IMG/VR virus record: IMGVR_UViG_3300031965_000074
Span: 1 to 40,740 of that record
Strand: one strand, 5' to 3'
DNA: 40,740 nt
From: a virus
Lineage: Duplodnaviria; Caudoviricetes
A program made the position numbers and the translations under genes. The notes below the pieces were generated by a model. The model was not told where the DNA came from. It did not search any database and saw only the letters and a list, made by a program, of their open reading frames with translations. Shown here piece by piece: positions 9,446 to 33,360 of this stretch (position 1 is the first letter of the stretch; every line of letters starts with the position of its first letter).

Positions 9446-9514
9446 TTGACAGCCGCCACCGGATTTGGTATCATGTGTTATGCTGTAGGGTGGCTTGGGT
9501 GGGTTAAGTAAGTA
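9446..9514 (+). promoter_or_regulatory. Sigma70 promoter (TTGACA-17-TATCAT, extended -10 TG) plus conserved G-rich leader, copy 1; drives the lysis cassette
   Basis: TTGACA 9446-9451, TATCAT 9469-9474, then GTGTTATGCTGTAGGGTGGCTTGGGTGGGTTAAGTAAGTA. Confidence 0.85.
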
Positions 9515-9538
9515 CTATACAGATAGAGTTAGCACATT

Positions 9539-9802
9539 ATGACCACACTGGAAATCATCGCTGCCGTTGTAACCGCCCTCGTAAGTGCTCTCGGCTTCTG
9601 GCTAGACCACCGCCGCCGCGCCGCCGTCGCCGAGCAGCTCCGGTCCGAAGCCACTGCTAAAGCCGCCATGAAAGCCGTGGTCGTGCTACGAAAGGAACTC
9701 ACAGACCGTGATAGAAAGCTACAACTCGTCGCTGCTAAGCTCGCTGCGAACCGCCCTACTGCTGACCTTGCTGCTGACCTTAACCGCCTGTGGGGCAAAT
9801 AG
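9539..9802 (+). CDS. Putative inner-membrane spanin (Rz-like)
   Basis: N-terminal TM (IIAAVVTALVSALGFWL) then an Ala/Leu coiled coil; overlapped in +1 frame by a lipoprotein. Confidence 0.6.
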   Translation: MTTLEIIAAVVTALVSALGFWLDHRRRAAVAEQLRSEATAKAAMKAVVVLRKELTDRDRKLQLVAAKLAANRPTADLAADLNRLWGK

Positions 9803-9986
9803 CCTGGTTGTCCCCGCCGCTGCGCATAGCCACAGCGAGCCCCCGCCGCGGCCGGCCGTGACCTGGTTCGAGTGCCAACCCCGGGTCGTCTGTGTGGCCC
9901 ATGATGATGCCGCCGCTGTGTTTGCCTACATTGAAGCCCTAGACCGCTATTTCGCCCTACTTACAGAGGAACACTCAAATGATTGA
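9708..9986 (+). CDS. Putative outer-membrane spanin lipoprotein (Rz1-like)
   Basis: Hydrophobic signal ending in lipobox LTAC; Pro-rich segment; additional Cys; overlaps the i-spanin 3' end. Confidence 0.6.
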   Translation: MIESYNSSLLSSLRTALLLTLLLTLTACGANSLVVPAAAHSHSEPPPRPAVTWFECQPRVVCVAHDDAAAVFAYIEALDRYFALLTEEHSND

Positions 9987-10185
9987 TTTCGCCGGAAACT
10001 TGCTCGCGTTTGTCCGAGACCACTATGTCGAACTCCTGGCCGTACTGGGCGCGCTAGTCGCCGCCCTGAAGGTCATTGCCCCGCTGACGCCTACCCAGTA
10101 CGACGACAAGGCCGTGGCCGGGCTCAGCTGGTTCGTGGACAAGCTGGTCTCCGCGGTTAGTCCCAAGTCCAAGAGGATGCCCTAG
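9979..10185 (+). CDS. Putative holin
   Basis: 68 aa, TM helix followed by APLTPTQYDD motif typical of small phage holin-like proteins; basic C-terminus. Confidence 0.55.
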   Translation: MIDFAGNLLAFVRDHYVELLAVLGALVAALKVIAPLTPTQYDDKAVAGLSWFVDKLVSAVSPKSKRMP

Positions 10186-10817
10186 TGCGCGGGCTAGTGG
10201 TCGCGCTTAGCGTGCTCCTGGCGGCCTGTGGCGGGAGTTCCTACGACTCGGCGCTGTACGACAGCCCGGGGATTCAAAACGCCGCAGAGCGCACGTACGA
10301 CATCGGTGTGGAATGCTACGACGGCAGCGCCTCTGGGGGTAGCGCTATCTACCTCAGTGAGGGCAGAGCCCTGACGGCGTATCATGTCATGTCCGGGCTG
10401 GACAACTGTGAGGCTACCCTGACGGACGACCAGGGCCAGGAGTACAAGGGCTTCATGATTGAACACGACAAGAGCCTAGACGTGGCCCTGCTGGTCACCA
10501 CGGACGACAGGGCGTTCTGGCCGACCGAGATGCGCTGGGGTCGGCTGGGCGAGCCTGTGGTCAACGTGGGCTATCCTATGCACCCGTCGGCTATGCAGCC
10601 CTCGGTGTTGTCTGTGACGACTGGTACGTTTTCCGAGCGACGGTACAAGCGCCACCGGGTCACGGCGTCGTGCTTTTTTGGTAGCTCGGGTGGCGGTACC
10701 TGGAGCGTCCGGGATAACAAGCTGCTCGGCATTACCGTGAGTACTTACGCGCAGCTGGACGGGTTCTGCTACGTTACGCCGGCCGAGCTGATTCAGCGCT
10801 GGCTGGACGGCGAGTAG
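10185..10817 (+). CDS. Trypsin-like (S1) serine protease, lipoprotein
   Basis: Lipobox LAAC; catalytic triad motifs LTAYHV, DVALL, FGSSGGG; VGYP. Confidence 0.88.
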   Translation: MRGLVVALSVLLAACGGSSYDSALYDSPGIQNAAERTYDIGVECYDGSASGGSAIYLSEGRALTAYHVMSGLDNCEATLTDDQGQEYKGFMIEHDKSLDVALLVTTDDRAFWPTEMRWGRLGEPVVNVGYPMHPSAMQPSVLSVTTGTFSERRYKRHRVTASCFFGSSGGGTWSVRDNKLLGITVSTYAQLDGFCYVTPAELIQRWLDGE

Positions 10818-10818
10818 C

Positions 10819-11427
10819 ATGCGCACCGCGGGGCTTATACTAGGCGTAGTCCTAGCAGCGTGCGGCCAGGCACCGGACGAGCCCGAGGCTACGTTTATCC
10901 AGGTGTGCCTGTCGCCGCTGGCCCCCGTGGGCGTGTATAGCCTGTCCGGTCAATGTGATGAGCCCGTCGAGGTCCGCTGGCAGCTGCCGGCGCTGGTAGG
11001 CTTCGACCCCGGCGTGCCGGCTGAGACTGTAGCCGCGGTAGCAGCTGCGGCCGACAAGTGGAACACCTGGCTCGGCGGGGATGCCCTACTGGTGGTACCT
11101 GGCCGACTCGGGTTAGTCTACGGCGACATCCAGGTGTCGGCGCGTGGCTGGACGGCGGGACAGACCTACGCTGGTATGAGCCAGTTTGCCTATGACTACG
11201 GCTACGGCCAGTTCTACGTAGACGTGCTACTATACGGCACGTACGCCTGGCACGAGGAAACCATCCTGCACGAGCTGGGCCACACGCTGGGGCTGGACCA
11301 CGACCCGGAGCGTACGGATAGCATCATGTACCCGCGCGTGAACGGCGACCCGAGCATACTCACAGCGGCGGACTGCTTGGCGTTTCGCGAAGCTTATCCG
11401 GACGAGCTAGACCCGCCTGATTGTTAG
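10819..11427 (+). CDS. Matrixin-like (metzincin) zinc metalloprotease, lipoprotein
   Basis: Lipobox LAAC; HELGHTLGLDH zinc motif; Met-turn SIMYP; AADKWN helix. Confidence 0.9.
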   Translation: MRTAGLILGVVLAACGQAPDEPEATFIQVCLSPLAPVGVYSLSGQCDEPVEVRWQLPALVGFDPGVPAETVAAVAAAADKWNTWLGGDALLVVPGRLGLVYGDIQVSARGWTAGQTYAGMSQFAYDYGYGQFYVDVLLYGTYAWHEETILHELGHTLGLDHDPERTDSIMYPRVNGDPSILTAADCLAFREAYPDELDPPDC

Positions 11428-11446: not shown

Positions 11447-11493
11447 AAAAGAAAATCCCGGCGGCCACAGCGGCTACCGGGATTTTTCCGTTT
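11447..11493. terminator. Bidirectional rho-independent terminator
   Basis: AAAATCCCGG...CCGGGATTTT stem with an A-run on the left and a T-run on the right. Confidence 0.8.
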
Positions 11494-14448: not shown

Positions 14449-15432
14449 CTACTGGGCATACTTCCGCCGCAGGTAGTCTAGGTCTACTTCCATGATGTTG
14501 TACTCCCCGCCGCTGACGCCGTGCTTCATGATGATGCCCCGCCAGTAGCAGTTGCCCTGTGGCCCAGGATATTCCTCGTCGTGCAAGTAGCAGCTGCCGG
14601 CGATGAGACCACGCAGCAGCCGGTTGCCCACCGGGAGGTTAGCCACTTCCAGGCCAGGCGTGTGGCCCGCCGTGGCCGACTGCGCCGCCCGCTGAATCTG
14701 GGCCTTCGCGCTAGGTGCGCCGCGTGTGGTCTGGAACACGCGACCGTTCGCCGACCGCGGGAAGAAGTGCGCGTACAGCACGCCGTCCACGTCGATGGGC
14801 TGCAAGAACGGAAACCGCTGCCAGCCCGCAGCTTCCCAGCCGACGCCGTCCAGAGTGAGTGCACCTTCCAGCGCCGGGTGGTCCGCGACGTATCGCTCGA
14901 TGCGGTACTCGTGGTTGCCAGTGACGAACAGCTTCAGCTCGGGCTCGTAGCCATCCATGCCGGCTTCGAACAGCTCCAGCGATTCGCGACCCGAGGCGAT
15001 GTCAGCCGTGAAGCGCTTACCTTCGGCGCCGATGCGGCCGATGTCATAGCTGCTGATGCTAGCCATGTCGAGCCAGTCGCCCATGTGGATAACCACGTCG
15101 GGCTTCTTATGCGCGATGTACTGACCAATCCAGTAGAAGTGGTCCAGCGGTACACCGGCGCGTACTTGCGTGTCCGGGATAATCAGGTGCTTCCGGCGGC
15201 GGGGGCTATGGAACACCGGCATGCGGCTGCCATTGTCCAGGCCGTCGTACTGTGGCAGCTGTGGCGAGGGCTCGGCCGGCTGCGACTGTCGCGTGTGCCG
15301 CCCATATGCGATGCGAATATAGTCCGCGGTGCAGCCGAAGCCAGCGGCTATGGCTGGCCAGGTTAGGCCCTGACGCCGGCAGTAACGGACCGTCGTAAGC
15401 CAGTCAGTGGGTAGCCTATACTTGTTATTCAC
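14449..15432 (-). CDS. Calcineurin-like metallophosphoesterase with N-terminal HTH-like segment
   Basis: IIPDTQV, HMGDWLD, GNHE, YAH, GHT motifs; N-terminal GLTWPAIAAGFGCT. Confidence 0.85.
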   Translation of the reverse strand: MNNKYRLPTDWLTTVRYCRRQGLTWPAIAAGFGCTADYIRIAYGRHTRQSQPAEPSPQLPQYDGLDNGSRMPVFHSPRRRKHLIIPDTQVRAGVPLDHFYWIGQYIAHKKPDVVIHMGDWLDMASISSYDIGRIGAEGKRFTADIASGRESLELFEAGMDGYEPELKLFVTGNHEYRIERYVADHPALEGALTLDGVGWEAAGWQRFPFLQPIDVDGVLYAHFFPRSANGRVFQTTRGAPSAKAQIQRAAQSATAGHTPGLEVANLPVGNRLLRGLIAGSCYLHDEEYPGPQGNCYWRGIIMKHGVSGGEYNIMEVDLDYLRRKYAQ

Positions 15433-15922
15433 AGCGGTAATACTCCTTGCACGAGTCGCAGGCTAGTTCCATGCCGCTGCGGCCTTCGTAGGTTTGGCAA
15501 TCGCCGGGTTGGACTGGGACAGTATACCGACTGGGCTCGTGTTCGCAGTTCGGATTGTCATCGCCGTCAATCGCGGCAGCCGACTCACCAGGCTCAGGCA
15601 TCGGCAAGTCCAGCATACCCCGGCGGACATAGGTCACGATGAACGTCAAGCAAGCCAGCGCGTTCTCGATATGCCGCGTACCTAGCTCCGGGTCGAGCCA
15701 CTGACCGTGCCGCCCGTTGGTGCTCACGTACTTGTGGGCTTCGAGCATATGCCGCTGCATAGCCGCATACAGCCGGTCCCATGTCAGGCCGCCCTGTTCC
15801 CAGTTGCGGTCGCCATACTTCGCGGCGCCGGGCCCGAGGATAGCCGCAAGGGCTTCCATGGCCTCGGGCGGCACTAGGTCCATGCGGGCTTTACCGCCGT
15901 CGAACTTATTAGCTGGCGCCAT
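15425..15922 (-). CDS. dATP/dGTP diphosphohydrolase N-terminal domain (DUF5664-like) protein
   Basis: KFDGGKARMDLVP...GAAKYGDRNWEQG...AAMQRH...DPELG..HI..A. Confidence 0.85.
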   Translation of the reverse strand: MAPANKFDGGKARMDLVPPEAMEALAAILGPGAAKYGDRNWEQGGLTWDRLYAAMQRHMLEAHKYVSTNGRHGQWLDPELGTRHIENALACLTFIVTYVRRGMLDLPMPEPGESAAAIDGDDNPNCEHEPSRYTVPVQPGDCQTYEGRSGMELACDSCKEYYRCE

Positions 15923-16565
15923 TGGTAAATTCCTCCGTCACTCGGGCTTGGTCAATCTTATCGACCAGCTGCTCGTGGATGTCCATGTACTTCGCGTAGG
16001 CTTCGTCCGCGCTCCAGGGCGTGAACAGGTTGTACGGCATGAATAGCTCACCCGTGTCGGGCAGCGGCTCATACATCCAGCGGGCCTCGGGCGGCACGAT
16101 GCGCTTGACCTCGAAGGCGAACACGGCCTTGTCGGCCCAGCGAACCAGCGGGTCGCGTAGGTCCACCTGGTAACGGGCTTCGATGGCGCAGCCTAGCTTG
16201 GCCTCTAGGAAGTCCATCGCGTCGGTGCGCGTCCGCAGCCAGGCCTTGACTGGACTAGGCATATCCGACGTGACGATTTCACCATCGTCGTGGTGCAGCG
16301 CCGCCAGTACCTGCGGCGGGATGCCACCGTGGCGAAGGACCACTTCGGCGACCAGGCACGCATGCTGTGCCACTGTGTAGTCCGAATAATTGCCGGCGTA
16401 CCGCCTGATATGGCTGAGACTGCGCGCCACCGGGTCGGGCTGGAACGCAGCCGGGTCAGGATTGTCTAGGAATATCCGCGTGCCGGTTGTGCCACGCACG
16501 CCCATGTAGATATCGCCAGACTCGTTGCGATACGTTTCGTCTACGCTGGTAATATAGTCACTCAT
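15909..16565 (-). CDS. HD-domain phosphohydrolase (YfbR/YfdR-like 5'-deoxynucleotidase)
   Basis: RSLSHIRRYAG, YTVAQH, ALHHDDGE..SDMPSPVK, WAD...E. Confidence 0.85.
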   Translation of the reverse strand: MSDYITSVDETYRNESGDIYMGVRGTTGTRIFLDNPDPAAFQPDPVARSLSHIRRYAGNYSDYTVAQHACLVAEVVLRHGGIPPQVLAALHHDDGEIVTSDMPSPVKAWLRTRTDAMDFLEAKLGCAIEARYQVDLRDPLVRWADKAVFAFEVKRIVPPEARWMYEPLPDTGELFMPYNLFTPWSADEAYAKYMDIHEQLVDKIDQARVTEEFTNGAS

Positions 16566-19283: not shown

Positions 19284-20099
19284 TTACTTCTCCTGTGAGG
19301 GGTTAACATACTTGGCGAACTCGGCCCAGCTAAGCGGGATATCGTCCGGTACGCCCATGTCTTGCTTCGTAAGATAGGCTGGGTTATGCTTGAACTTCAG
19401 TACGCGCTCGCCGGTCGTGACGACCTTGGCCTTGAGTTCGCCTTTCTTTTTGCGGGCCAGGTCCTCGTGGCAGGCGAAGCCGATGATGTCTACACGGCCC
19501 CGGAGGATGCTAACGGCGCGCTTGTCTAGCTGCATGGTCCACACGTCGTAGTTCTCGCCGTCCGGGTTTTGGAACGTCCGAATGTCCGAGTGAGCAATGA
19601 GTATAACACCAAAGCCCACAGAGCGCAAGGCCTCAATGCCGGCGGCGAACCGGAGCCACTCGACCTTGGCGGCCACGAAGCCCTTGCCGTAGCCACCGGC
19701 GATTTGCTCGATGTTTTCGCAGCCGTGCTTGGCGCATAGCTCGGCGTGAAGCAGGTACTCCATGGCGTCGAGGGTATCGAACACGATGGTGGCGAACTCC
19801 GACTTGGCGGCCGTGACGGTGCACAGCTCGCGCATAGTGTCGAGGATGTCGCTCCAGGACGTGGGGACTACCCGGGCTACGTCCAGGTTGCCCGTGCGGC
19901 GGTCGGCGTCGATGAACAATGGCGCCGGGGCAGCGGCGGCAAAGCTAGACTTGCCAACACCGGGGCCACCGTGGATAGCGACGCGCACAGGTAGCTGCTG
20001 CTTGCCGCGGCTGATGCGGCTAACCAGGCCGGCCGGGGTCCGGGATGGCTTCGATGTTGACCTCAATATGGTCGGCCATTTCAGCGAACGTGTGCGCAT
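19284..20099 (-). CDS. Sak4-like AAA ATPase / ssDNA annealing protein
   Basis: IHGGPGVGKS, TIVFDT, GGYGKGF, ILIAH, DIIGF; start uncertain. Confidence 0.85.
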   Translation of the reverse strand: MRTRSLKWPTILRSTSKPSRTPAGLVSRISRGKQQLPVRVAIHGGPGVGKSSFAAAAPAPLFIDADRRTGNLDVARVVPTSWSDILDTMRELCTVTAAKSEFATIVFDTLDAMEYLLHAELCAKHGCENIEQIAGGYGKGFVAAKVEWLRFAAGIEALRSVGFGVILIAHSDIRTFQNPDGENYDVWTMQLDKRAVSILRGRVDIIGFACHEDLARKKKGELKAKVVTTGERVLKFKHNPAYLTKQDMGVPDDIPLSWAEFAKYVNPSQEK

Positions 20100-20349
20100 G
20101 GTAGCCTTGCTGGCCGTCGTTGCGGTTCCACAGGTCCGACGAGCCTTTCATGGCGTATGGGTCACGGTAATCGTCGCCGCGGTCACGGATGGCCTCGTAG
20201 TTGCACGAGCCTTGGATGACCATGGACAGTACGCCCAGGCAACAGTAGCGCTCGGTTTCCTTGTTATACAGCTGCGAATGGCCCTGTTTGAAGTTTCCAC
20301 TGCGCAGCGCTTCGAGCCACTGTGCTTTCTCGGTCTCGGTGATTTTCAT
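20020..20349 (-). CDS. Hypothetical protein, 'ALRSG...CCLGV' family, paralogue 1
   Basis: WLEALRSGNFKQG..QL...CCLGVL...ND...TFAEMADHIE. Confidence 0.7.
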   Translation of the reverse strand: MKITETEKAQWLEALRSGNFKQGHSQLYNKETERYCCLGVLSMVIQGSCNYEAIRDRGDDYRDPYAMKGSSDLWNRNDGQQGYHAHTFAEMADHIEVNIEAIPDPGRPG

Positions 20350-20410: not shown

Positions 20411-20439
20411 ATCCTACCATGTTTTACCCTGCCTGTCAA
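20411..20439 (-). promoter_or_regulatory. Sigma70 promoter TTGACA-17-TAGGAT (extended -10 TG), no G-rich leader
   Basis: Minus strand TTGACA 20439-20434, TGG, TAGGAT 20416-20411; lies in the gap between genes. Confidence 0.75.
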
Positions 20440-21470: not shown

Positions 21471-21795
21471 TGTCGTCGCCTTGTCGTCGGGGTGCCGTCC
21501 TGTGGAGGAGGACCTTCTCTACGTTGCGATAAGCCCGTGCGCAGCCGCGAGTATATTCGGACGCGGGGTAGCACTTGTCCTTGTTCATCTGCACGTACAC
21601 GTCCTCGCTGTTCTCTGCACACCCGCGGGCCATGTCCGCCGCTTGGACCAGACCGTCGCGAACGCCAGCGTCGTAGGCGTGTTCGACGATGTCGTCCAGG
21701 TCGCAAGAGGCGAAACCGCAAGCGCACCACTCGTCGCGAATCTTCCGCACGCGCAGGTCACGCGCATCGGAGTCCGCCGCCGCGCTACTCGACAT
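21457..21795 (-). CDS. Hypothetical protein (start reassigned to 21795)
   Basis: GAAGGAG RBS; coupled to neighbours. Confidence 0.5.
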   Translation of the reverse strand: MSSSAAADSDARDLRVRKIRDEWCACGFASCDLDDIVEHAYDAGVRDGLVQAADMARGCAENSEDVYVQMNKDKCYPASEYTRGCARAYRNVEKVLLHRTAPRRQGDDSDIR

Positions 21796-22270
21796 CGGGT
21801 AGCTCCTTCGGCGGGTATAGCTTGTCCACGCGCTCGTCCAGGGCTGCCACGTCGGCACCGGCCTCGCGGAGTAGGTCCACGGCGCGACGCAGCGTAGCCG
21901 CCGGTAGGCCTTTGTTTTCCTCGACGCTGCGAGCCTCGGACATGGCGTCGCGGATGTCCTGCGGCGTCATAGCCGCCGGGTCCAGCGCATACAGCGCGTC
22001 GGCGATGTCATTGCGCAGCCAGACTTCCTCGTGGAACAGGACCAGCGCGGCTCGTACCAGCGGCGGCGACGCCCACTTTTCGGCGTAGTCGGCCGCGATG
22101 GCATCGACGGCGGCCCGGGTAACACCGTCGTGAATGTTCTCGCGCAGGCGGTAAAATACTTGGTCGGCCTCGCAGCCGTCCATGATGAGCTTGTGAATAT
22201 CGCGCAGGTGCTTGCTCTCAGCGAAGGCTCGGTCGGCTGCTAGCTTCTGCGGGTTAACCTTGAGTGACAT
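21785..22270 (-). CDS. Hypothetical protein
   Basis: 161 aa; overlaps neighbours by a few nt. Confidence 0.6.
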   Translation of the reverse strand: MSLKVNPQKLAADRAFAESKHLRDIHKLIMDGCEADQVFYRLRENIHDGVTRAAVDAIAADYAEKWASPPLVRAALVLFHEEVWLRNDIADALYALDPAAMTPQDIRDAMSEARSVEENKGLPAATLRRAVDLLREAGADVAALDERVDKLYPPKELPDVE

Positions 22271-22853
22271 TGAGTTGCTCCTTTAGGGCAGAGATGGACC
22301 ACTTGCCGCAGGTTACGTCGAAGTCCCCGTCGTTGCTGATGATGTTCTCGGCGATGCGGGTTAGCAGCGTGTCGCTAACGCTGACACCGTCGGGCTTAGT
22401 TTGGACGCACAGGTCGTGCCACTTGGCTTCGTCAGGTGTAAAGGTCGGGACTTCGTAGGCTCCGTTGGCGTAGCTTTCGTGCCAGCCCTCAAAGGCTGCC
22501 TCGATGCGAACCATGGTCAGCTCGTCCCACAGTGCGCTATCCTGTATCGGGTAATGGTCATTGTTTCTGACTGCCGACCCACGGAATAGTGCACATACTA
22601 ACAAGGCGCCCCGGGCGCAGACGGTACACGTCGGCATGCGCGTGGCATCCGGGCTACATGCATCGTGGGGTAGCATGTTGCCTTTGTTGTCCCTGACGAA
22701 CAGCAGCGTGCCTTTTTCTGAGCGCAACTTGCGGCATTTCAGCCCGCTCAGGATGTCGTAGGCAATCATGACCCGCTGTTTCGCAGGCGATGCCTCGGCG
22801 AACTCGGCATTCGTGCGCAGAATGCGCTGCCGCAGCGACGGGGGCTTAGCCAT
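22254..22853 (-). CDS. Hypothetical protein, 'RVxIAxD-CxxC-AFE-NI..GxF' family, paralogue A
   Basis: RVMIAYDI, CTVCARG, IEAAFE, IAENIISNDGDF. Confidence 0.75.
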   Translation of the reverse strand: MAKPPSLRQRILRTNAEFAEASPAKQRVMIAYDILSGLKCRKLRSEKGTLLFVRDNKGNMLPHDACSPDATRMPTCTVCARGALLVCALFRGSAVRNNDHYPIQDSALWDELTMVRIEAAFEGWHESYANGAYEVPTFTPDEAKWHDLCVQTKPDGVSVSDTLLTRIAENIISNDGDFDVTCGKWSISALKEQLNVTQG

Positions 22854-23361
22854 CGGACTTGGCCTTTCGCTGCTTACGCGGCACGAACTCGCCGCCGTTG
22901 CGGACGATGTTGCGCATGATGCTCAGCAGCCGTTGCTGCGACGTATAGCCGGCCGGCCAGTAGCTGCCACGGAACTTGCCCCAGCACCCGGGTGCGAAGT
23001 CGTCCCAGCACTCGAAGGCTTCCTCGATGAGCAGCAGCTGCTTCTCGCTGAACCACGGTCGCAGCCGGTCGAACACGTCGTCCTCCGACTCGATGGCCTC
23101 GCCCTCCCGGTACGTCGCGGCCACTAGCAGTGAGCCAACGCCGCATACGTAGCAACTGGCGTACGGTGCGTCTTTGGTCGTAGGCGCGCAGTAAGTGCCC
23201 GTCGTGGCCAGGAGTTTGTCCACCTTAACGAAGGCGATAACGTCCTGGGCAATCATGACCCGCTTAGCAGCTTTGCCGGCCTTGCGGAAGGCCGCGTTAG
23301 ATGCTATGAAGTAGCCCGCGAGCTTGTCGTTGTCCCATACTGTGTCTTGGTTTAGTTTCAT
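22846..23361 (-). CDS. Same family, paralogue B
   Basis: RVMIAQDV, CYVCGVG, FSEKQLLLIEEAFE, IMRNIVRNGGEF. Confidence 0.75.
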   Translation of the reverse strand: MKLNQDTVWDNDKLAGYFIASNAAFRKAGKAAKRVMIAQDVIAFVKVDKLLATTGTYCAPTTKDAPYASCYVCGVGSLLVAATYREGEAIESEDDVFDRLRPWFSEKQLLLIEEAFECWDDFAPGCWGKFRGSYWPAGYTSQQRLLSIMRNIVRNGGEFVPRKQRKAKSDG

Positions 23362-23430: not shown

Positions 23431-23751
23431 TCACTTGAGGTGCTTCTCGATGTGGTCGGCGATGTCGTCGAACGTTGCGTCGCTCTTGTCATTCATCTCG
23501 GCCAGGTAGTTAGCCTGTGCGTCTGTCATGCAGCTACCGGGTGGACCGTAGTAGTAGCTAGACGAAGGGGTCTTGAGTGGTCGGCCCATGGCAGTCCAGT
23601 CCGGGCCGTTGACGACTTCGTATAGCACGCCCAGGCAGCAGTGCGTACCGTCGAGCGGTTTATGTAACTGGCCGCGGCCCTTGGCATACTTGCCGCTGCG
23701 TAGAGCGGCTACCCAGGCTGCTTTCAGCGCCGGGTCGAATTTTTCACTCAT
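23431..23751 (-). CDS. Hypothetical protein, 'ALRSG...CCLGV' family, paralogue 2
   Basis: WVAALRSGKYAKG..QL...CCLGVL...ND...TFDDIADHIE; AAGGAG RBS. Confidence 0.7.
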   Translation of the reverse strand: MSEKFDPALKAAWVAALRSGKYAKGRGQLHKPLDGTHCCLGVLYEVVNGPDWTAMGRPLKTPSSSYYYGPPGSCMTDAQANYLAEMNDKSDATFDDIADHIEKHLK

Positions 23752-23790
23752 GCTGTATCTCCTTGTAAGTGCACATTCTATGTGTAGTAA

Positions 23791-23860
23791 TACTTACCTA
23801 GCCCACCCAAGCCGCCCTAGCAGCATAACATATACTACCAAACTTGGCGGCGGAAGTCAA
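23791..23860 (-). promoter_or_regulatory. Sigma70 promoter (TTGACT-17-TAGTAT, extended -10) plus conserved G-rich leader, copy 2
   Basis: Minus strand TTGACT 23860-23855, TAGTAT 23837-23832, then ATGTTATGCTGCTAGGGCGGCTTGGGTGGGCTAGGTAAGTA. Confidence 0.85.
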
Positions 23861-24135
23861 GCTAATACTCGTAGCCCTCCGGGCGTGCCATCCGCTATCC
23901 AGCAGCGGATTTCCCAGAGTAGCCTACGCTTAGTCTGGCTTGCCGTTTCCCAGGGGTACAGCCACACTATGCGCCGCGTGCCGGCGTCGTGGTTACACAC
24001 CACGGCATACAGACGGTCCGTCGCCCAGTCCCGGAAGACTGTCATGCCGTCGTCTGTGCACACGCGCACTGGCCCGGTCCAACCCCAGGCGATGGCTCGT
24101 GTGACGCCATGGCGTACTTCCTCGATGGACATCAC
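23857..24135 (-). CDS. Hypothetical protein
   Basis: Coupled to the amidase stop codon. Confidence 0.5.
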   Translation of the reverse strand: MMSIEEVRHGVTRAIAWGWTGPVRVCTDDGMTVFRDWATDRLYAVVCNHDAGTRRIVWLYPWETASQTKRRLLWEIRCWIADGTPGGLRVLA

Positions 24136-26216: not shown

Positions 26217-26416
26217 GATGTCTCGATTCGTAGTTGGCCGCACAGCTGGACCGAGCGCCCAGCGACGGCGACAGTAGTATACGTCGCAGCGTGTGACCGC
26301 ACGACGCCGGTATGCCCGGCCAGCGGCGGTTGCTTGTGACTGCCCATGCGGATACGCAGGTCGGCGGCAAAGCGGACCCGCGTGCCCGGTGGCAGCTGTG
26401 ACAGCTGGGTTAGCAT
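26213..26416 (-). CDS. Hypothetical small beta-barrel-like protein
   Basis: LPPGTRVRF...GHTGVV pattern; GGAG RBS. Confidence 0.45.
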   Translation of the reverse strand: MLTQLSQLPPGTRVRFAADLRIRMGSHKQPPLAGHTGVVRSHAATYTTVAVAGRSVQLCGQLRIETS

Positions 26417-26796
26417 GCGTTTAGCTCCTGGCGGCACAGCTCCAGGCGGCACAGCTCGTGTAGCCGTTCTACTGCCTTATCGTAGAGGCCGTCGTCGTTC
26501 CAGTTGTACTCGCAGTCGTGCAAGTCCTGCGCCTCCATCAGGAAGCCATGCGACTCCCGCGGTACGCCGATGTCATCTAGTGCGGCCACTAGACGCGACC
26601 TTGTCTCGTTGATAGAGTTACTCAGACCGGCCGAGTTAAACCCCGACACGTCGTAATCGTCGGGGAACAGGCAGCCGACTGCGCACTTGAGGCCTTCCGG
26701 CGTGCGGAACTGGCACGTACCGTGCTCGGAGACAGCTCGCTTACTAGCACTCAGCAAATGGTCTCGCACTCGTTGGACTACTTCTTGTCTGTTCAT
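26410..26796 (-). CDS. Hypothetical protein, 'CxFR..GLKCAVGCL...QxxHD' family
   Basis: CQFRTPEGLKCAVGCLF; LMEAQDLHD. Confidence 0.7.
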   Translation of the reverse strand: MNRQEVVQRVRDHLLSASKRAVSEHGTCQFRTPEGLKCAVGCLFPDDYDVSGFNSAGLSNSINETRSRLVAALDDIGVPRESHGFLMEAQDLHDCEYNWNDDGLYDKAVERLHELCRLELCRQELNAC

Positions 26797-26977: not shown

Positions 26978-27631
26978 TCAGTACTCCAGGCAAGAGTTGA
27001 TTAGGCATTTCGTGGACGGATAGTAGCCAGGCGCGAAGTGGCCGTGATAGTCGATGATGTTCACCATGATGGCGCGCAACAGCACGCTGGGCTCGTCGTC
27101 GTAGTGGTTCGACCAGGTGCAGGCCTCGATGGCGTCACGTATCCAGTCCGCGTCGCCGTCGCCGTCGTCCAAGGCATCTTGCAAGTCGCTCGCGTTGTAA
27201 GACTCGCCGATGCTGGACAAGCCAGAACTCTCGGGCGCGTAGACTACGCTGCCCTCGAACGCAGCTTCCATGAGTGACAGCTGCTTGTCGCTGAACCATT
27301 GCGACAGGTATTTCCGCTGCGAACGGAAGTCGTTCAAGCAGCCGGACATTTCGCCCATGGTTAGCTGGTCGCAGCGTTCCACGGCGGCAGCGAATACGCC
27401 ACCGATTGCGCAGACATAGCACACCGGCGCTTCTTTCAGGACTTCCTGTAGTTGCTTGTCCTCCGGAATGGGCTTGTAGTATTCGTCGTCGCCCAGCCGC
27501 AGATACGTCTGCTGTTCGGCTACGTAGTGCCGGCTATTCAGATGGCCCAGCACGTCCTTCGCAATGATTACTCGTTGCCGCGGGCTCGGCAGCGCGTTGA
27601 ACTCTTCGATTGATAGCGGTTTCTTGGTCAT
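26978..27631 (-). CDS. 'RVxIAxD-CxxC-AFE' family, paralogue C
   Basis: RVIIAKDV, CYVCAIG, FSDKQLSLMEAAFE, IMVNIIDYHGHF. Confidence 0.75.
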   Translation of the reverse strand: MTKKPLSIEEFNALPSPRQRVIIAKDVLGHLNSRHYVAEQQTYLRLGDDEYYKPIPEDKQLQEVLKEAPVCYVCAIGGVFAAAVERCDQLTMGEMSGCLNDFRSQRKYLSQWFSDKQLSLMEAAFEGSVVYAPESSGLSSIGESYNASDLQDALDDGDGDADWIRDAIEACTWSNHYDDEPSVLLRAIMVNIIDYHGHFAPGYYPSTKCLINSCLEY

Positions 27632-28299
27632 GGGATATCCTCCGTTAGGGTTAATGCCTCGGCGATGATTCGGTCCATCGAAGGCGGAAACTGCTGCGGG
27701 TAGAACCGTCCGCTGTTATCGATGATATTCAGCATGATAGCCCGCATGAGCGCACCGGGCGCATCACGGAACCTGGGCTTCCATTGTTCGCAAGCGGTCA
27801 GCGCATCCTGGAGCCACAAACGCTCGACAACGGGGTACGCCATTGTATCAGCATCGATGCCGACCAAGTTACGCAGGTCATGAACGTTCAGCGAACTGTA
27901 GCGCTTGGTTAGCTCGAAGCTACCCGGCAGATGGACCACGCGCCCCTCGAAGGCAGTCTCGATAAGTCGCAGCTGCGATTCGTTGAAGTATGGTCGCAGA
28001 TAGTCCATCTGCATTAGGGAATCGCCCAAGTCGAAGCCTATCTCGCCCATGGTAAGCGCATTGCAGCGCTCCACGGTAGCGGCGAATATACCGCTGATTG
28101 CGCACAGTCTGCACTTCCGTGCGCGCAGTACCTCCTGGACTTGAGTCTCATCTTCAGGCTTAGGCCCGGCGCCATCCGTGTGTATGTACATCTCGTGCCG
28201 CGCAATGAAGTGTCCCGAGTTGAGATGCCGCATCACGTCGCGGGCGATTGCAACCCGTTGTTCGGGCTTTGACAATTTGGTGAATTCGTCGTCGGTCAC
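27628..28299 (-). CDS. 'RVxIAxD-CxxC-AFE' family, paralogue D
   Basis: RVAIARDV, CRLCAIS, FNESQLRLIETAFE, IMLNIIDNSGRF. Confidence 0.75.
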   Translation of the reverse strand: MTDDEFTKLSKPEQRVAIARDVMRHLNSGHFIARHEMYIHTDGAGPKPEDETQVQEVLRARKCRLCAISGIFAATVERCNALTMGEIGFDLGDSLMQMDYLRPYFNESQLRLIETAFEGRVVHLPGSFELTKRYSSLNVHDLRNLVGIDADTMAYPVVERLWLQDALTACEQWKPRFRDAPGALMRAIMLNIIDNSGRFYPQQFPPSMDRIIAEALTLTEDIP

Positions 28300-28505: not shown

Positions 28506-28663
28506 TCCAGGTAGGTAATGCCACCAGCCAGTGCCACCGAGACCAGAATGGCCCCAAGCAGCAGCCCAAGCAGCGAGATGACCCGGTGCCAGCTAACGCT
28601 AGCCAGGTCGGTCACGACGAACACGACGTACGCAACGGCGATTAAAGCGGCGAATGCTATCAT
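28493..28663 (-). CDS. Small two-TM membrane protein
   Basis: Two hydrophobic helices; GGAGG RBS; ATGA coupling. Confidence 0.55.
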   Translation of the reverse strand: MIAFAALIAVAYVVFVVTDLASVSWHRVISLLGLLLGAILVSVALAGGITYLEWTP

Positions 28664-29244
28664 GATTTCCTCCATTTGTTCCAAGATTGTAGCCAGTTCG
28701 GGGGTGTACCCGTACCGCCCATGTCGTAGTCCGGGATACGGCTACCGTACGGGCTCCACGGGTCGAATAGCACCGGCTGGTCGCCGGCCATGCCCCAGTT
28801 ACCTGAGTGTGTGTCGGCGGAGTCTATCCGTTCGACAGCGCTACGAAAGTCGTGAGCGCTGCAAGCGCCCACTAGTTGTTCGCCCAGCAGCGAACCGTCG
28901 GACTCGCCCTCGATCCACCACTGGCGCCACGTCTCGTGATACGTCCAAAACCGCTCTTTGTCGGCAGTGTCGTACAGCGGAGTCCAGTAGCCGATGCACG
29001 CATACCCGCTGAAGTATACCAACTGCGGGTACACCACCGGCGCTAGGAACGAGAAGCGGCCATCGTGTAGCCCGGACGTAATGGCTCGTCGCATGCGGTC
29101 ACCGCGGGTTAGCTTCAGGACATGCCTTTCGCCCTGGGTTATCCATGCGCCCATGTCGGCGCCCGAGTCTAGCTGCCGCGCCGGACGCAAGTCTTCGGGC
29201 ATATGCGGCCAGTCCGCGGCGACGACATGTTGCAGCGCCAGCAT
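28660..29244 (-). CDS. Protein kinase-like protein (T7 gp0.7 kinase domain-like)
   Basis: Gly loop LDSGADMGAW, VLK lysine, catalytic DTHSGNWG...PVLFDP; TAATG-coupled start at 29244. Confidence 0.7.
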   Translation of the reverse strand: MLALQHVVAADWPHMPEDLRPARQLDSGADMGAWITQGERHVLKLTRGDRMRRAITSGLHDGRFSFLAPVVYPQLVYFSGYACIGYWTPLYDTADKERFWTYHETWRQWWIEGESDGSLLGEQLVGACSAHDFRSAVERIDSADTHSGNWGMAGDQPVLFDPWSPYGSRIPDYDMGGTGTPPNWLQSWNKWRKS

Positions 29245-29744
29245 TACAGTGCCTCCAGGTCGGTCACGTCGCGGTACCACAGCAGCTGCCCAGGTTGCGC
29301 AATGCCGCAAGGCATCGGCTCGGCAAACCAGCGGGCTACGTCGCGCGGCCGGTGCGCGTACACGTACAGGATACTCCAATCTGGTGTGCGACTTGACTTG
29401 AAGCGTCGTACGTGAAACCCGCGGCTTTCAGCTGCATCGCTGGCCTGTTGTAGTGAGCCTTTGACCACTAGGTGGTACTTAAATTTCCCGCGGTGTGGCT
29501 CGCCGGCCTCATGCGCCACCCGGTCCGCGACTGCTCGCTCGTGACCTTTGCGCAAGTCGCGCGCGGTCGTGTACGACGACACGTTGTAGCGAAACGTCGA
29601 AACGTCATGGCAGCAAGCACACTGCGCCTGGATTTCGTGACAGTCCGGCAGGCACAGATAGATGTACAACGTCTGCTTGCATTTCCGGCACGGAGGCCCG
29701 CTATCGGTGCCGTACCGCTCGGGTCCGAATTCTGCATTACCCAT
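29244..29744 (-). CDS. Hypothetical Zn-finger protein
   Basis: CRKC...CAC; AAGGAAGG RBS. Confidence 0.55.
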   Translation of the reverse strand: MGNAEFGPERYGTDSGPPCRKCKQTLYIYLCLPDCHEIQAQCACCHDVSTFRYNVSSYTTARDLRKGHERAVADRVAHEAGEPHRGKFKYHLVVKGSLQQASDAAESRGFHVRRFKSSRTPDWSILYVYAHRPRDVARWFAEPMPCGIAQPGQLLWYRDVTDLEAL

Positions 29745-30363
29745 TGGATGCCTTCCTTTCCGGCGCGTGTATAACCATTTGTGTGAGTTGACGATTTGGC
29801 ACCATCGTTGCGTCCGCCGACCTCGCCGCCGCCGACCACGCCGCCGACCTCGCCGCCGCCCTTGCCGCCGCGGGCCACGCCGCCGCCTCCGCCGCCAACG
29901 CCGCCGCCAACGCCGCCAACGCCGCCGCCAACGCCGCCGCCTCCGCCGCCTCCGACGACCACGCCGCCGCCGCTCTTGCTCTCACGCGTAACGACTCGTC
30001 GCCAGTACGCAACCACTGTAGCACCACCGGTGGTGCATCCCACATATGCGCGACACTAAGCGCTTGTGCCCGGGCGAACCGTCGTAACACTGCGGTTGCG
30101 TCGTAACCCCAGAGCACGGTGCGGCTAGTCGCGACGACCTTATCCTTGTCACGGATAATCGTGCCGCCGAGTCGTACGCGGCAGATGTAAGGGCCGGGCG
30201 CATATTCCAACGCGTCGTAAAGCAGGCGGCTAGCGTGTAGCCCACTGCTACAGAGCACAAGCGGTCCATCGTGTCGTAACTCGACGCCTGGCGCTGGTAG
30301 CGGCTGGCCATCGCGTAGCACGGGCCCAACCGGGCCTATGTTGCAGAAATGCCATGCCATCAT
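29737..30363 (-). CDS. Conserved phage protein with CxxGLHAS motif and Ala-rich repeats
   Basis: LCSSGLHAS..DALEYAPG...DKVVA; AAWSAAR-type repeats. Confidence 0.7.
   Translation of the reverse strand: MMAWHFCNIGPVGPVLRDGQPLPAPGVELRHDGPLVLCSSGLHASRLLYDALEYAPGPYICRVRLGGTIIRDKDKVVATSRTVLWGYDATAVLRRFARAQALSVAHMWDAPPVVLQWLRTGDESLRVRARAAAAWSSEAAEAAALAAALAALAAALAAEAAAWPAAARAAARSAAWSAAARSADATMVPNRQLTQMVIHAPERKASNG
29812..29973. repeat. Coding low-complexity (GCC)n-based tandem repeat
   Basis: GCG GCG (GCG) NNG units on the minus strand encoding poly-Ala with W/S/E/L/R spacers. Confidence 0.85.
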
Positions 30364-30830
30364 GACTCTAGTCTCCTTAGCTGCGCTTGCAACTGCACCA
30401 ATGGCGACGCCGTTGCAGTTGCGCGCTTAGCCTTGCGCCTAGCCGCACGGTTCCGCCGCTTGCGTTCGGCACGACCTGCTGCGGCGAATTCCGCCCGGTC
30501 ATTCTCGCGTGCCACTAGCACCGCCGGGTGCATATTGCACGCCAAACTATGCTCTCGCGTTGCTCCGGTAGCGCTCTGGACACTCCGGTCAACGGCGACT
30601 TGCGCAGTGGTAGCTACGCGCGCGGGATACGAGGTACGGTCCGCCGGTGCTTGGCCCGCTCGCGCTGCATACGCTTCCGGGTAGCGCAATATGCTATCCG
30701 TGCCGGGTATGACCGGCCGGGCCACACTATCCAGGCGCGACCCAGAGCGGGCCCCGTCGGCCGCCCCGGGTAGGTCATGCTCGCGCAAGCCTTGCAAATC
30801 CGTCATTGCCTTGAGTATTGGTTTTCGCAT
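30360..30830 (-). CDS. Hypothetical basic early protein
   Basis: GGAGG RBS; Arg/Ala-rich C-terminus. Confidence 0.55.
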   Translation of the reverse strand: MRKPILKAMTDLQGLREHDLPGAADGARSGSRLDSVARPVIPGTDSILRYPEAYAARAGQAPADRTSYPARVATTAQVAVDRSVQSATGATREHSLACNMHPAVLVARENDRAEFAAAGRAERKRRNRAARRKAKRATATASPLVQLQAQLRRLES

Positions 30831-31906: not shown

Positions 31907-31935
31907 ACTGTACCAGCGGCCACGAGGCGTGTCAA
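31907..31935 (-). promoter_or_regulatory. Leftward early sigma70 promoter TTGACA-17-TACAGT (extended -10)
   Basis: Minus strand TTGACA 31935-31930, TGG, TACAGT 31912-31907. Confidence 0.8.
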
Positions 31936-32214: not shown

Positions 32215-32230
32215 TGGCACGGCGCGTGCA
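32215..32230 (+). promoter_or_regulatory. Possible sigma54 (-24/-12) promoter
   Basis: TGGCAC-GGCGC-GTGCA, GG-N10-GC spacing, intergenic, AT-rich upstream. Confidence 0.45.
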
Positions 32231-32563
32231 CAGCGTCGTAGCATAGAAGGTACATTTTCAAGACCGCCGGCTAAGTGGGGCCGCCACAGTGGCGCACTGC
32301 TAAGTAGGCAATCCCTGGCTAACCGCCGCCCGGGCTACGGCTCTGCGGTTGGTTGGGCGGCGGTCGCCACGCAACCAATATCAGGTATGTAGGCTAGTAA
32401 CCGTTTGTTCACGATTTGTCCTACACCGGCGCACATGTGCGGCAGCCGCGACCGGGCTGGGCGGGCCGTCGCAGCTAAGTGCGCGATTGCTGGCTAACTG
32501 GGCTATACTACTAGCGGCAGCCGGTTGTCATTTAGTAAATGATACGGGCCTAGAAATTACAGC

Positions 32564-32634
32564 TTGACACCAGGCCGCGGCAGTGGTATAGTATATGTTA
32601 CACTGTAGGGCGGCTTGGGCGGGTTAAGCTAGTA
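32564..32634 (+). promoter_or_regulatory. Sigma70 promoter (TTGACA-17-TATAGT, extended -10) plus conserved G-rich leader, copy 3; drives the packaging/structural operon
   Basis: TTGACA 32564-32569, TATAGT 32587-32592, then ATATGTTACACTGTAGGGCGGCTTGGGCGGGTTAAGCTAGTA. Confidence 0.85.
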
Positions 32635-32946
32635 TTCCTATATACAGCTGCTACTAGTCCGCCGCCGATTAGTCGCAAGTTAGCACATGCTGCCGCCGCG
32701 GCTAAGTCGCACAAAAATGAATAAATCGCCATTTGTGTCCGTTTTGACACGGTCCGGCCGCCGTCTAAACCCGTAGCGATGTCGCCCAGTTGTGAAATAG
32801 TTCATTTTTCCGTGAATACACTCCTGGGCTCGTACGTCTAACCTTTCTCTGCTCGCTACGCTCGCATGCTCGGCGCTTCGCACCTCGCGGTTGGTTTTCG
32901 GGTTCGGACACAGCAAGCCGCTGCCAAGCGGCTTAAGGATAGCTCC

Positions 32947-33360
32947 ATGACCAGACAGCTCACCTGTATCGTCGGCATGCCCCGCAGCGGCAAGACCACC
33001 CTGGCAGCTAAGCTAGCCGCCGACAGCGGTGCCACGGTCATCCATAGTGATGACTACCTGCATCTGCCGTGGCGCGTCATTCCCGGCGCGCTGCTACGAG
33101 CCCTCAGCGGCGCCAAGGGCGACGTTATCCTGGAGGGCATCCATGTGGCCCGGCTACTAGGAAAACCCCCGCTACGGGGCGCAAGCGTCATCCTGTGCCA
33201 CTCTACGCCAGCCTTGGTCAGGCAGTACCGCTCGCTGAGCTGGGTACTCGACAAGGTCGGCGAATATGCCACCCGCCACGCGGTGCGGCAGTACGACTAC
33301 CGGAAGGAATCATCGCATGAGGGAATTCCTGGAAGTACCCGACAAGCTGAAGCGACTTAG
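32947..33360 (+). CDS. Small P-loop NTPase / nucleotide kinase-like protein
   Basis: IVGMPRSGKTT, VIHSDD, VILEG; start reassigned to ATG 32947. Confidence 0.75.
   Translation: MTRQLTCIVGMPRSGKTTLAAKLAADSGATVIHSDDYLHLPWRVIPGALLRALSGAKGDVILEGIHVARLLGKPPLRGASVILCHSTPALVRQYRSLSWVLDKVGEYATRHAVRQYDYRKESSHEGIPGSTRQAEAT

Follow-up and report, generated by a model that had tools for sequence, protein, structure and literature searches.

In the Reg576/EGeRS2 system of the pLS20-family clade II plasmids, strong promoters of the TTGACA-N14-TGn-TATAAT type are served by one dual-heptamer operator (PMC6294495, PMC8708921). Four strong TGn promoters are described as being repressed by Reg576, which acts at direct heptamers paired with a 2-bp gap; each pair is bound cooperatively by two ribbon-helix-helix dimers, and some pairs sit downstream, near the ribosome site (PMC6294495). 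A 6-bp direct repeat is also read by 21Q, and Q is reported to bind between the -35 and -10 elements and to need a terminator to read through (PMC6606751). At the lambdoid late promoters pR' (lambda, 21, and 82), a -10-like hexamer follows the -10 by about one helical turn (PMC5001585, PMC6606751), and sigma pauses in Escherichia coli keep a conserved distance of 11 bp, class G1d comprising 407 promoters (PMC7876045). T4-type phages RB49 and phi1 carry the PeSL, a repeated cassette of ~100 bp on a consensus sigma70 promoter (PMC2839356), and the human PDGFR-beta promoter contains a vacancy quadruplex of three GGG runs and one GG run with loops of 1 to 3 nt (PMC8682790). Repeated phage motifs without an assigned function are common (PMC4351075).

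Here we compare with these systems a promoter-leader module that occurs three times in the window, that is, the whole stretch of DNA analyzed, which is an entire IMG/VR virus record (40,740 bp; 62% GC; 88% complete). Judged by this comparison, the module would work most like the dual-heptamer operators of EGeRS2/Reg576, without being a member of that system. The phage belongs to an uncultured family of ~45 kb that is podovirus-like by gene set, and the module raises the question of how its genes are ordered in time.

Genome setting and gene content

A 44,531-bp contig carries the same proteins as the window, leaving ~3.8 kb of the genome outside the latter, and the two runs matching at least half of the window's sampled words are soil metagenomes, one of which may be its source. 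According to PHROGs and Pfam, genes for a terminase, a portal-type protein, and a weakly SU10-like capsid protein lie right of 32.9 kb, and the leftward block from 31.7 to 11.9 kb comprises orphan genes along with genes for an amidase, exonucleases, Sak4, a DnaB-like helicase, nucleotide-pool enzymes, and a DNA polymerase. Searches with the capsid protein gave 91 uncultured relatives, the closest being 67% identical, and zero matches among 50,697 GenBank phage records; a search of genome_contigs returned no capsid relatives and 3 weak terminase matches, and the polymerase query found no match in viral_contigs.

Scans against PHROGs (63 proteins), Pfam (61 and 30), and NCBIfam (30) recognized no RNA polymerase, sigma factor, Q, N, NusG family protein, or integrase in the window, in agreement with the initial annotation, which had recognized no Q, N, or phage sigma factor, and every clear promoter of the phage is of the host type. 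Two regulator candidates, the helical product of 21785-22270 and the arginine-rich product of 30360-30830, had no usable Atlas match, and a homologue search for one of them was also empty. Among the early open reading frames (ORFs), 28660-29379 (-) has kinase-like motifs by eye and 30360-30830 (-) an arginine-rich C-terminal helix, both with no meaningful family match. A gene cluster at 14449-16565 (-) encodes a metallophosphoesterase, a dATP/dGTP diphosphohydrolase, and a YfbR-like dNMP phosphatase and is syntenic with the distant relative G002; no PurZ was recognized. The window also contains two families of Cys-motif paralogues (22254-23361 and 26978-28299; 20020-20349, 23431-23751, and 26410-26796).

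One promoter-leader module at three sites

Six sites in the window match TTGAC-N16-18-TAnnnT, and the common block follows three of them (Table 1), the others (31935-, 20439-, and 8212+) being without it. The initial annotation had described three promoters of the form TTGACW-N14-TGG-TAnnnT at 9446+, 23860-, and 32564+ with a common leader, a further downstream tail common to copies 1 and 3, a second extended -10-like element in each leader, and two leaderless promoters at 31935- and 20439-, and all of these features were recovered. A 29-nt core occurs at these 3 sites and at no other site on either strand at 0 to 8 substitutions, the tail AGTTAGCAC is present after copies 1 and 3 only, and the second -10-like element begins 10, 10, and 12 bp after the start of the true -10, matching the consensus at 4 of 6 positions. 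With start sites predicted 6-8 nt after the -10, the cassette consists, in order, of the promoter, the extended -10-like hexamer across the start, a dual heptamer, a conserved YTARGYWAGTA reaching +35, and a looser tail. The dual heptamer, WGGGYGG-CT-WGGGYGG, is a 7+2+7 direct repeat at about +8 to +24 from the predicted start, and a scan of the window at 0 and 1 mismatch found the three copies only.

Table 1. Positions of the module copies, control promoters, and neighboring elements in the window.
Feature	Position	Strand	Details
Copy 1 promoter (predicted)	9446..9474	+	-35 9446-9451; 17-bp spacer ending TGG; -10 9469-9474; 11/12 consensus, TG present
Copy 1 extended -10-like element TG-n-TATGCT	9476..9484	+	10 bp after -10; predicted start ~9480
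Copy 1 29-nt core	9486..9514	+	Heptamers 9487-9493, 9496-9502
Copy 1 G runs GGG/GG/GGG/GGG	9488-9503	+	
Copy 1 tail	9515..9538	+	AGTTAGCACAT at 9527-9537 common to copy 3
Genes behind copy 1	9539..11427	+	Predicted i-spanin, o-spanin-like lipoprotein, holin-like (sequence features only), trypsin-like and M10 peptidase proteins
Control: promoter without block	20411..20439	-	Directly ahead of Sak4, helicase, and polymerase genes
Copy 2 promoter (predicted)	23832..23860	-	-35 23860-23855; -10 23837-23832
Copy 2 extended -10-like element	23822..23830	-	10 bp after -10
Copy 2 core	23791..23819	-	Heptamers 23818-23812, 23809-23803
Copy 2 tail	23749..23790	-	Ribosome site AAGGAG 23764-23759; start codon of gene 23431-23751 (phrog_18067)
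Control: early promoter without block	31907..31935	-	
19-bp dyad TGTCATTTA-G-TAAATGATA	32526..32544		Center ~65 bp upstream of copy 3 predicted start
Copy 3 promoter (predicted)	32564..32592	+	-35 32564-32569; -10 32587-32592; 11/12 consensus, TG present
Copy 3 extended -10-like element TG-n-TACACT	32596..32604	+	12 bp after -10
Copy 3 core	32606..32634	+	Heptamers 32607-32613, 32616-32622
Copy 3 long non-coding leader	32635..32946	+	Common tail 32678-32688 after 30-nt insertion

Conservation of the core

Self-comparison with blastn aligned copies 1 and 2 over 92 nt (79% identity, E 1e-13), copies 2 and 3 over 53 nt (83%, E 4e-7), and copies 1 and 3 over 42 nt (83%, E 6e-5). The alignable stretch of copies 1 and 2 extends from the -35 almost to the ribosome site and includes spacers that are identical at 9 of 14 bases (chance P 0.005), so these two copies are paralogous cassettes rather than a leader added to unrelated promoters. 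The spacers had initially been called unrelated, which is true of copy 3 (6/14 and 4/14) but not of copies 1 and 2.

In the three copy pairs, identity in the core is 26/29, 25/29, and 24/29 (83-90%) versus 9/14, 6/14, and 4/14 (29-64%) in the spacer (Fisher p 0.089, 0.0085, and 0.0014). The core is therefore likely under selection, which bears out the proposal of a cis element common to the three promoters, and the module is a real, probably selected, and apparently undescribed element of this kind. Within the core, the same position, the fourth base of GGGYGG, is variable in both half-sites.

Gene context and timing of the three units

The three sites had been regarded as heads of the lysis, replication, and packaging/structural operons. 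Copy 3 is such a head, its first plausible start codon, at 32947, being followed by packaging and structural genes, but copies 1 and 2 are internal promoters within continuous same-strand gene arrays: the -35 of copy 1 lies 20 bp past a stop codon, that of copy 2 overlaps the stop codon of ORF 23857-24135, and the terminator scan listed none upstream of either copy. The lysis assignment of the copy 1 unit rests on sequence features, by which its genes look like those for an i-spanin, an overlapping o-spanin lipoprotein, and a small holin, whereas the recognizable amidase (PF01510, 24132-24848) is located elsewhere, upstream of copy 2. An A- and T-flanked hairpin at 11447-11490, after the peptidase genes, is a likely two-way terminator closing the copy 1 unit. 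Nor does copy 2 directly head the core replication genes, which have the leaderless promoter 20439- immediately in front; gene 23431-23751 behind copy 2 is a paralogue of the gene behind 20439-, and the two phrog_18067 genes of the window thus each stand directly behind a promoter.

Several related contigs start at a GGGGTACC-type motif, ~1.7-2.7 kb upstream of terL, which suggests that a genome end lies next to copy 3 and that promoter 31935- and copy 3 point inward from opposite ends. As copy 3 would then sit at the end opposite the early promoter, the order of DNA entry could supply the timing, and the premise that strong late promoters need a delay device is weaker than originally stated.

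Distribution among strains and relatives

Among the sequences searched, the module is carried by the window and two near-identical strains only. Contig L025 represents an independent strain (96-98% identical) in which core and tail are unchanged and the module differs at two positions, one in the copy 2 spacer and one at the free base n of TG-n. It is without ORF 23857-24135, between the amidase gene and copy 2, with a breakpoint ~20 bp before the copy 2 -35; ~170 bp inside the gene after copy 2 (window 23500-23708) are missing as well. The second strain, a single contig of low depth (depth 3) from run X2, spans 32426-32918 with 9 differences, 6 of them listed and none of those listed falling in 32544-32811; for copy 3, such invariance has P 0.22 over the 77-nt module, which is not significant alone, and P 0.03 over 157 nt. 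Runs X3-X5 gave no usable coverage of copy 3.

The three-copy profile was absent from 65 other loci, mostly capsid or terminase relatives (747 kb, best E 0.28), and from five related genome records (four complete, one 81% complete; best E 4.2 and 9.2), and self-blastn of these five records revealed no repeated promoter-leader unit. The dual repeat was found at 0 of 31 distinct promoter-like sites of 55 family loci. An exact 23-mer had 0 matches in viral_contigs, and a 27-mer matched 4 stretches in metagenome_contigs, 3 from the window's own contig and one from L025. Relaxed patterns gave 3 and 10 matches, which were discarded as chance, the three-copy profile scoring no better than E 0.04 and 7.7. 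A blastn search of GenBank phages yielded one weak 24-bp match, Rfam gave 0 matches for the module, and five short motifs, including the 19-bp dyad, were without match in the searchable literature text. The module is thus lineage-specific within the sequences reached; the search of related contigs that had been recommended at the outset recovers it from two near-identical strains but not from the 65 loci or the five related records.

These distributions bear on the possibility that the three copies arose, much as a PeSL, by duplication of a strong promoter including its initial transcribed sequence and 5' UTR, without a dedicated regulator. The purine-rich start would then be retained for the sake of promoter escape or mRNA stability, or through old gene conversion, and the order of DNA entry would set the timing. 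The 92-nt homology of copies 1 and 2 starting from the -35, the gene missing directly upstream of copy 2 in L025 with its breakpoint ~20 bp from the -35, the restriction of the module to one lineage, and the probable genome end beside copy 3, to which the contigs starting at the terL-proximal motif point, all agree with such an origin. As in the PeSLs of RB49 and phi1 (PMC2839356), a cassette on a consensus sigma70 promoter is repeated and a gene indel adjoins one copy. However, the core is more conserved than the spacer, its 3-5 differences are scattered instead of leaving 100% tracts, and conservation reaches ~+35. In contrast to the ~50 PeSL copies described among clustered ORFans, which lie close together in one orientation and serve for crossover, the window has 3 copies ahead of core modules, 9-23 kb apart and one of them inverted, so that recombination between them would remove or invert essential modules; the indel in L025 does not reach into the cassette, and there is no common terminator stem-loop, a rod being supported for copy 3 alone and no U-tract following the core (PMC2839356). 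We consider regulator-free copying unlikely; should the module be neither an operator nor a vacancy quadruplex, it would be an ordinary duplicated promoter.

A candidate operator for one cooperative regulator

We tentatively favor, at somewhat less than an even chance, the reading that the G-rich dual heptamer is the common operator of one cooperative regulator that represses all three promoters. RNA polymerase would start ~6-8 nt after the -10, with the repeat at +8 to +24 lying inside its footprint, and two dimers bound to both heptamers could block promoter escape, perhaps assisted by a sigma pause at the -10-like hexamer. A repressor made from an operator-free early promoter would hold down the lysis, copy 2, and virion genes, while the operator-free promoter 20439- would drive replication, and the newly replicated operators might then titrate the repressor and release the late genes. 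Such simple operator logic fits the absence of the repeat from the early (31935-) and replication (20439-) promoters.

Support for an operator comes from the triplication, the fixed offset and orientation, the excess conservation of the core over the spacer, and the 7+2+7 repeat, as well as from the core remaining unchanged in L025 and, over copy 3, in the X2 strain contig. Variation of the fourth base of GGGYGG in both half-sites is as expected if one protein reads two repeats. L012, L014, and L017 have a similar box (GGTTGGGCGG or GGTTAGGGCGG) ahead of the late promoter, in opposite-strand orientation, which, if homologous, would point to a role at the DNA level. Against an operator, no regulator came out of the library scans or of the Atlas and homologue searches, which covered proteins of the window and not the ~3.8 kb beyond it, and the module is missing from the 65 loci, the five related records, and the 31 promoter-like sites of the family. 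In addition, conservation extends over ~40 nt, beyond the 16 bp that it would require, the comparison comprises three paralogues and two near-identical strains only, and the invariant Gs are equally well predicted by a quadruplex.

The resemblance to the Reg576/EGeRS2 operators (PMC6294495, PMC8708921) lies in the strong promoter type, in the use of one dual-heptamer operator, and in the direct orientation and 2-bp gap of the heptamers, found in all three copies and at no other window site at 0-1 mismatch. Unlike the Reg576 heptamer TTATCCC, described as lying directly upstream of the -35 (PMC6294495), the heptamer of the window is WGGGYGG, is located downstream of the -10, and forms a pair fixed at about +8 to +24. 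Host group and replicon also differ, the genes concerned are lysis, middle, and virion genes as opposed to the establishment genes of the plasmids, and no ribbon-helix-helix gene was found among the window proteins scanned (PMC6294495, PMC8708921). Among 30 small window proteins, no member of a ribbon-helix-helix or helix-turn-helix family was detected at E up to 0.5, and no ribbon-helix-helix operator of a phage late promoter turned up in the literature listings. If the operator reading is true, a new regulator would be found among the orphan genes. With a target of 16 bp, three variants that occur naturally, and two internal control promoters, the cassette makes the question testable with short oligonucleotides and reporters.

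A plausible sigma pause and the proposed Q-like switch

The initial annotation interpreted the leader as a temporal switch in which RNA polymerase would pause at the -10-like hexamer and be loaded there with an unannotated Q-like antiterminator, timing three operons. The hexamer itself agrees with this, since an extended -10-like element at 10-12 bp after the -10 is present in 3 of 3 copies, compared with 2 of 31 promoter-like sites of the family for the plain hexamer at that distance and 0 of 31 for the extended form; L025 changes just the free base of its TG-n, and the pR' of phage 82 is described as likewise using an extended -10-like element (PMC5001585). Yet the hexamer matches the consensus at only 4 of 6 positions, and such pauses are common. 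The spacer, where Q would bind, is the least conserved part of the module (9/14, 6/14, and 4/14), no Q-family protein was found among the window proteins scanned with PHROGs, Pfam, and NCBIfam, no hairpin with a U-tract follows copy 1 or 2, and behind copy 3 there are three weak terminator candidates (-3.9 to -8.1 kcal/mol). Terminator-like sites occur at chance level (9 versus 10.4 and 10 versus 9.7 expected).

The spacing near 11 bp makes a sigma-dependent pause plausible, but an ordinary one: pauses are reported for hundreds of E. coli promoters (class G1d, PMC7876045), and a pause alone would therefore not be a new system, as had been suggested. Like the lambdoid pR' promoters, the window has a -10-like hexamer about one helical turn after the -10 at a late promoter; unlike them, as far as they are described (PMC5001585, PMC6606751), it has no conserved site between -35 and -10, no Q that could be found, no terminator after copies 1 and 2 and three weak candidates after copy 3, and a conserved repeat downstream of the pause element. 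We regard the loading of a Q-like factor as very doubtful, and a switch of the lambda Q type is unsupported. The hexamer accounts for 6-9 of the ~40 conserved bases, and the G-rich dual repeat needs another explanation.

Guanine runs and a possible vacancy quadruplex

A further candidate explanation is a quadruplex attenuator: the GGG-GG-GGG-GGG runs of the non-template strand, of the nascent RNA, or of a DNA:RNA hybrid would form a quadruplex with one vacancy. Were a guanine nucleotide to occupy that vacancy, promoter escape or early termination would follow the guanine pool. None of the 11 Gs of the runs differs between copies, variation being confined to single-base loops (P 0.039, post hoc), and with loops of up to 3 nt the vacancy pattern occurs at the three leaders only; with loops of up to 4 nt, it is present in 5 of 16 genome-end regions, window included, versus 1.06 expected. 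Vacancy quadruplexes are reported to accept GMP and to form in transcribed duplex DNA (PMC8682790), hybrid quadruplexes to inhibit transcription in vitro (PMC7736831), and the phage encodes dATP/dGTP diphosphohydrolase and dNMP phosphatase domains. On the other hand, shuffles yield 2.3 such patterns per genome, loops of up to 4 nt bring three extra sites in coding DNA, and both the vacancy pattern and the loop length were picked after the matches had been seen. The CTT loop and the flanks are conserved as well, although a quadruplex does not need them; ViennaRNA, which models complete tetrads only and not a filled vacancy, prefers the quadruplex in 1 of 12 folds, and vacancy quadruplexes are called unstable (PMC8682790).

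In four relatives the motifs are located ahead of the promoter and on the other strand, and three of the four relatives represent one clade (70-74% in the best terL segment), both of which weaken the case. In L012, L014, L017, and L006, the GG/GGG box is located 175-253 bp from the end motif and is reached by at most 1 of 400 shuffles in each. The boxes, each a GG run with three GGG runs upstream of a late promoter, are at L012 314-335, L014 2727-2741, L017 3407-3421, and L006 ~395-412, all on the minus strand. Other phage promoters with G-rich runs directly after them were seen at L034 1233-1295, L065 2141-, and L032 10001; those of L034 include a 9-bp tandem repeat upstream of a Sak4 gene.

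The runs resemble those of the PDGFR-beta promoter in number, loop length, and proximity to a promoter, and differ from that human case by their location on the sense strand, immediately past a predicted start site of bacterial type (PMC8682790). No case of a phage quadruplex leader turned up in the literature listings. Taken together, we judge a quadruplex attenuator quite unlikely. It is highly improbable that the core is a natural guanine-nucleotide sensor in which the vacancy quadruplex competes with a G-U-rich hairpin and in which GTP, (p)ppGpp, or c-di-GMP in the vacancy would gate lysis, middle, and virion genes without a phage protein. If the core is a vacancy quadruplex, it would constitute a new type of metabolite switch and, as such a sensor, would resemble a riboswitch made from a quadruplex.

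Folds of the leader RNA and of single-stranded DNA

The nascent leader might instead act as a nut- or put-like element or as a 5' stabilizer through a 6-bp G-U-rich hairpin with a GYGGG loop, either bound by a phage protein, for example, the arginine-rich product of 30360-30830, or remaining at the 5' terminus of an RNA started from the second promoter, of the extended -10 type. The hairpin is retained in 24 of 24 cells of the comparison with three one-sided changes, copy 3 with its own promoter folds as a rod (32554-32640, z -4.36), and the copy 3 leader folds at z -2.41 (32600-32740). Nevertheless, the hairpin is weak (-1.9 to -4.3 kcal/mol) and was matched by 500 of 500 shuffles in the tool's control, 6 of 7 leader folds have z scores at chance level (-0.73 to +0.76), and Rfam had no match. 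Two-sided changes numbered 0 in 10 pairs and 0 in 6 pairs, a comparison of low power with 4 sequences; a conserved stem-loop of the nut/put type with covariation was accordingly not seen in these 4 sequences. We therefore rate an RNA element as decidedly improbable.

A rod spanning the whole module, in which the spacer pairs with the leader, had been seen by eye in all three copies and was rejected as a common feature. Its z scores were +0.28, -2.23, and -4.36 for copies 1, 2, and 3; spacer shuffles folded as well in 192/300, 144/300, and 3/300 cases, respectively, and pairing with the leaders was about equally good for the 5' half of the control promoter 31935-. RNase III processing was dropped together with the rod. 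A single-stranded DNA promoter or cruciform was likewise discarded (DNA fold z -0.21, -1.12, and -1.96 for the sense and +0.10, +0.08, and -1.09 for the antisense strand): unlike promoters of the Frpo type as described in PMC8708921, the module has no stable hairpin that would rebuild a promoter, and its loop comes directly after the -10. A leader peptide was excluded too, the reading frames differing between copies and an AUG being located at the predicted start in copies 1 and 2 and not in copy 3.

Two leaders stand out in their own right. At copy 3, the rod and the leader fold, with no listed strain change in 32544-32811, may represent a non-coding RNA ahead of the packaging genes. In L006, the leader at 550-760, between the promoter and the first late gene, is closed by a perfect 14-bp stem around ~165 nt (z -2.88), possibly a structured RNA, and G002 has a tRNA-like sequence, recognized by eye, at the matching place.

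Dyad upstream of copy 3 and presumed genome-end elements

The 19-bp dyad (Table 1) accompanies copy 3 alone; since copies 1 and 2 are without it, it does not belong to the module. In the X2 strain (one contig, depth 3), its center base is changed and its single mismatch perfected. A perfect dyad occurs once in the distant, syntenic relative G002, inside a GNAT-like gene (L043 4139-4157), and once between genes in G006 (G006:C1:39159-39177), and in 0 of 4 other records; 8 of 10 viral matches, which lie inside open frames of contigs with 21-36% GC, were dismissed as chance. A single copy in each of three GC-rich phages, at a different location in each, suggests a candidate site for a host protein.

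Patterns of the -24/-12 kind, which we label sigma54-type, cluster at the presumed genome end in this family, at 32215-32229 (+) in the window, 84- and 224+ in L006, 7042+ and 6694- in L043, 2296+, 2339+, and 2511+ in L014, and four sites in L063. They may indicate the host group or be packaging signals.
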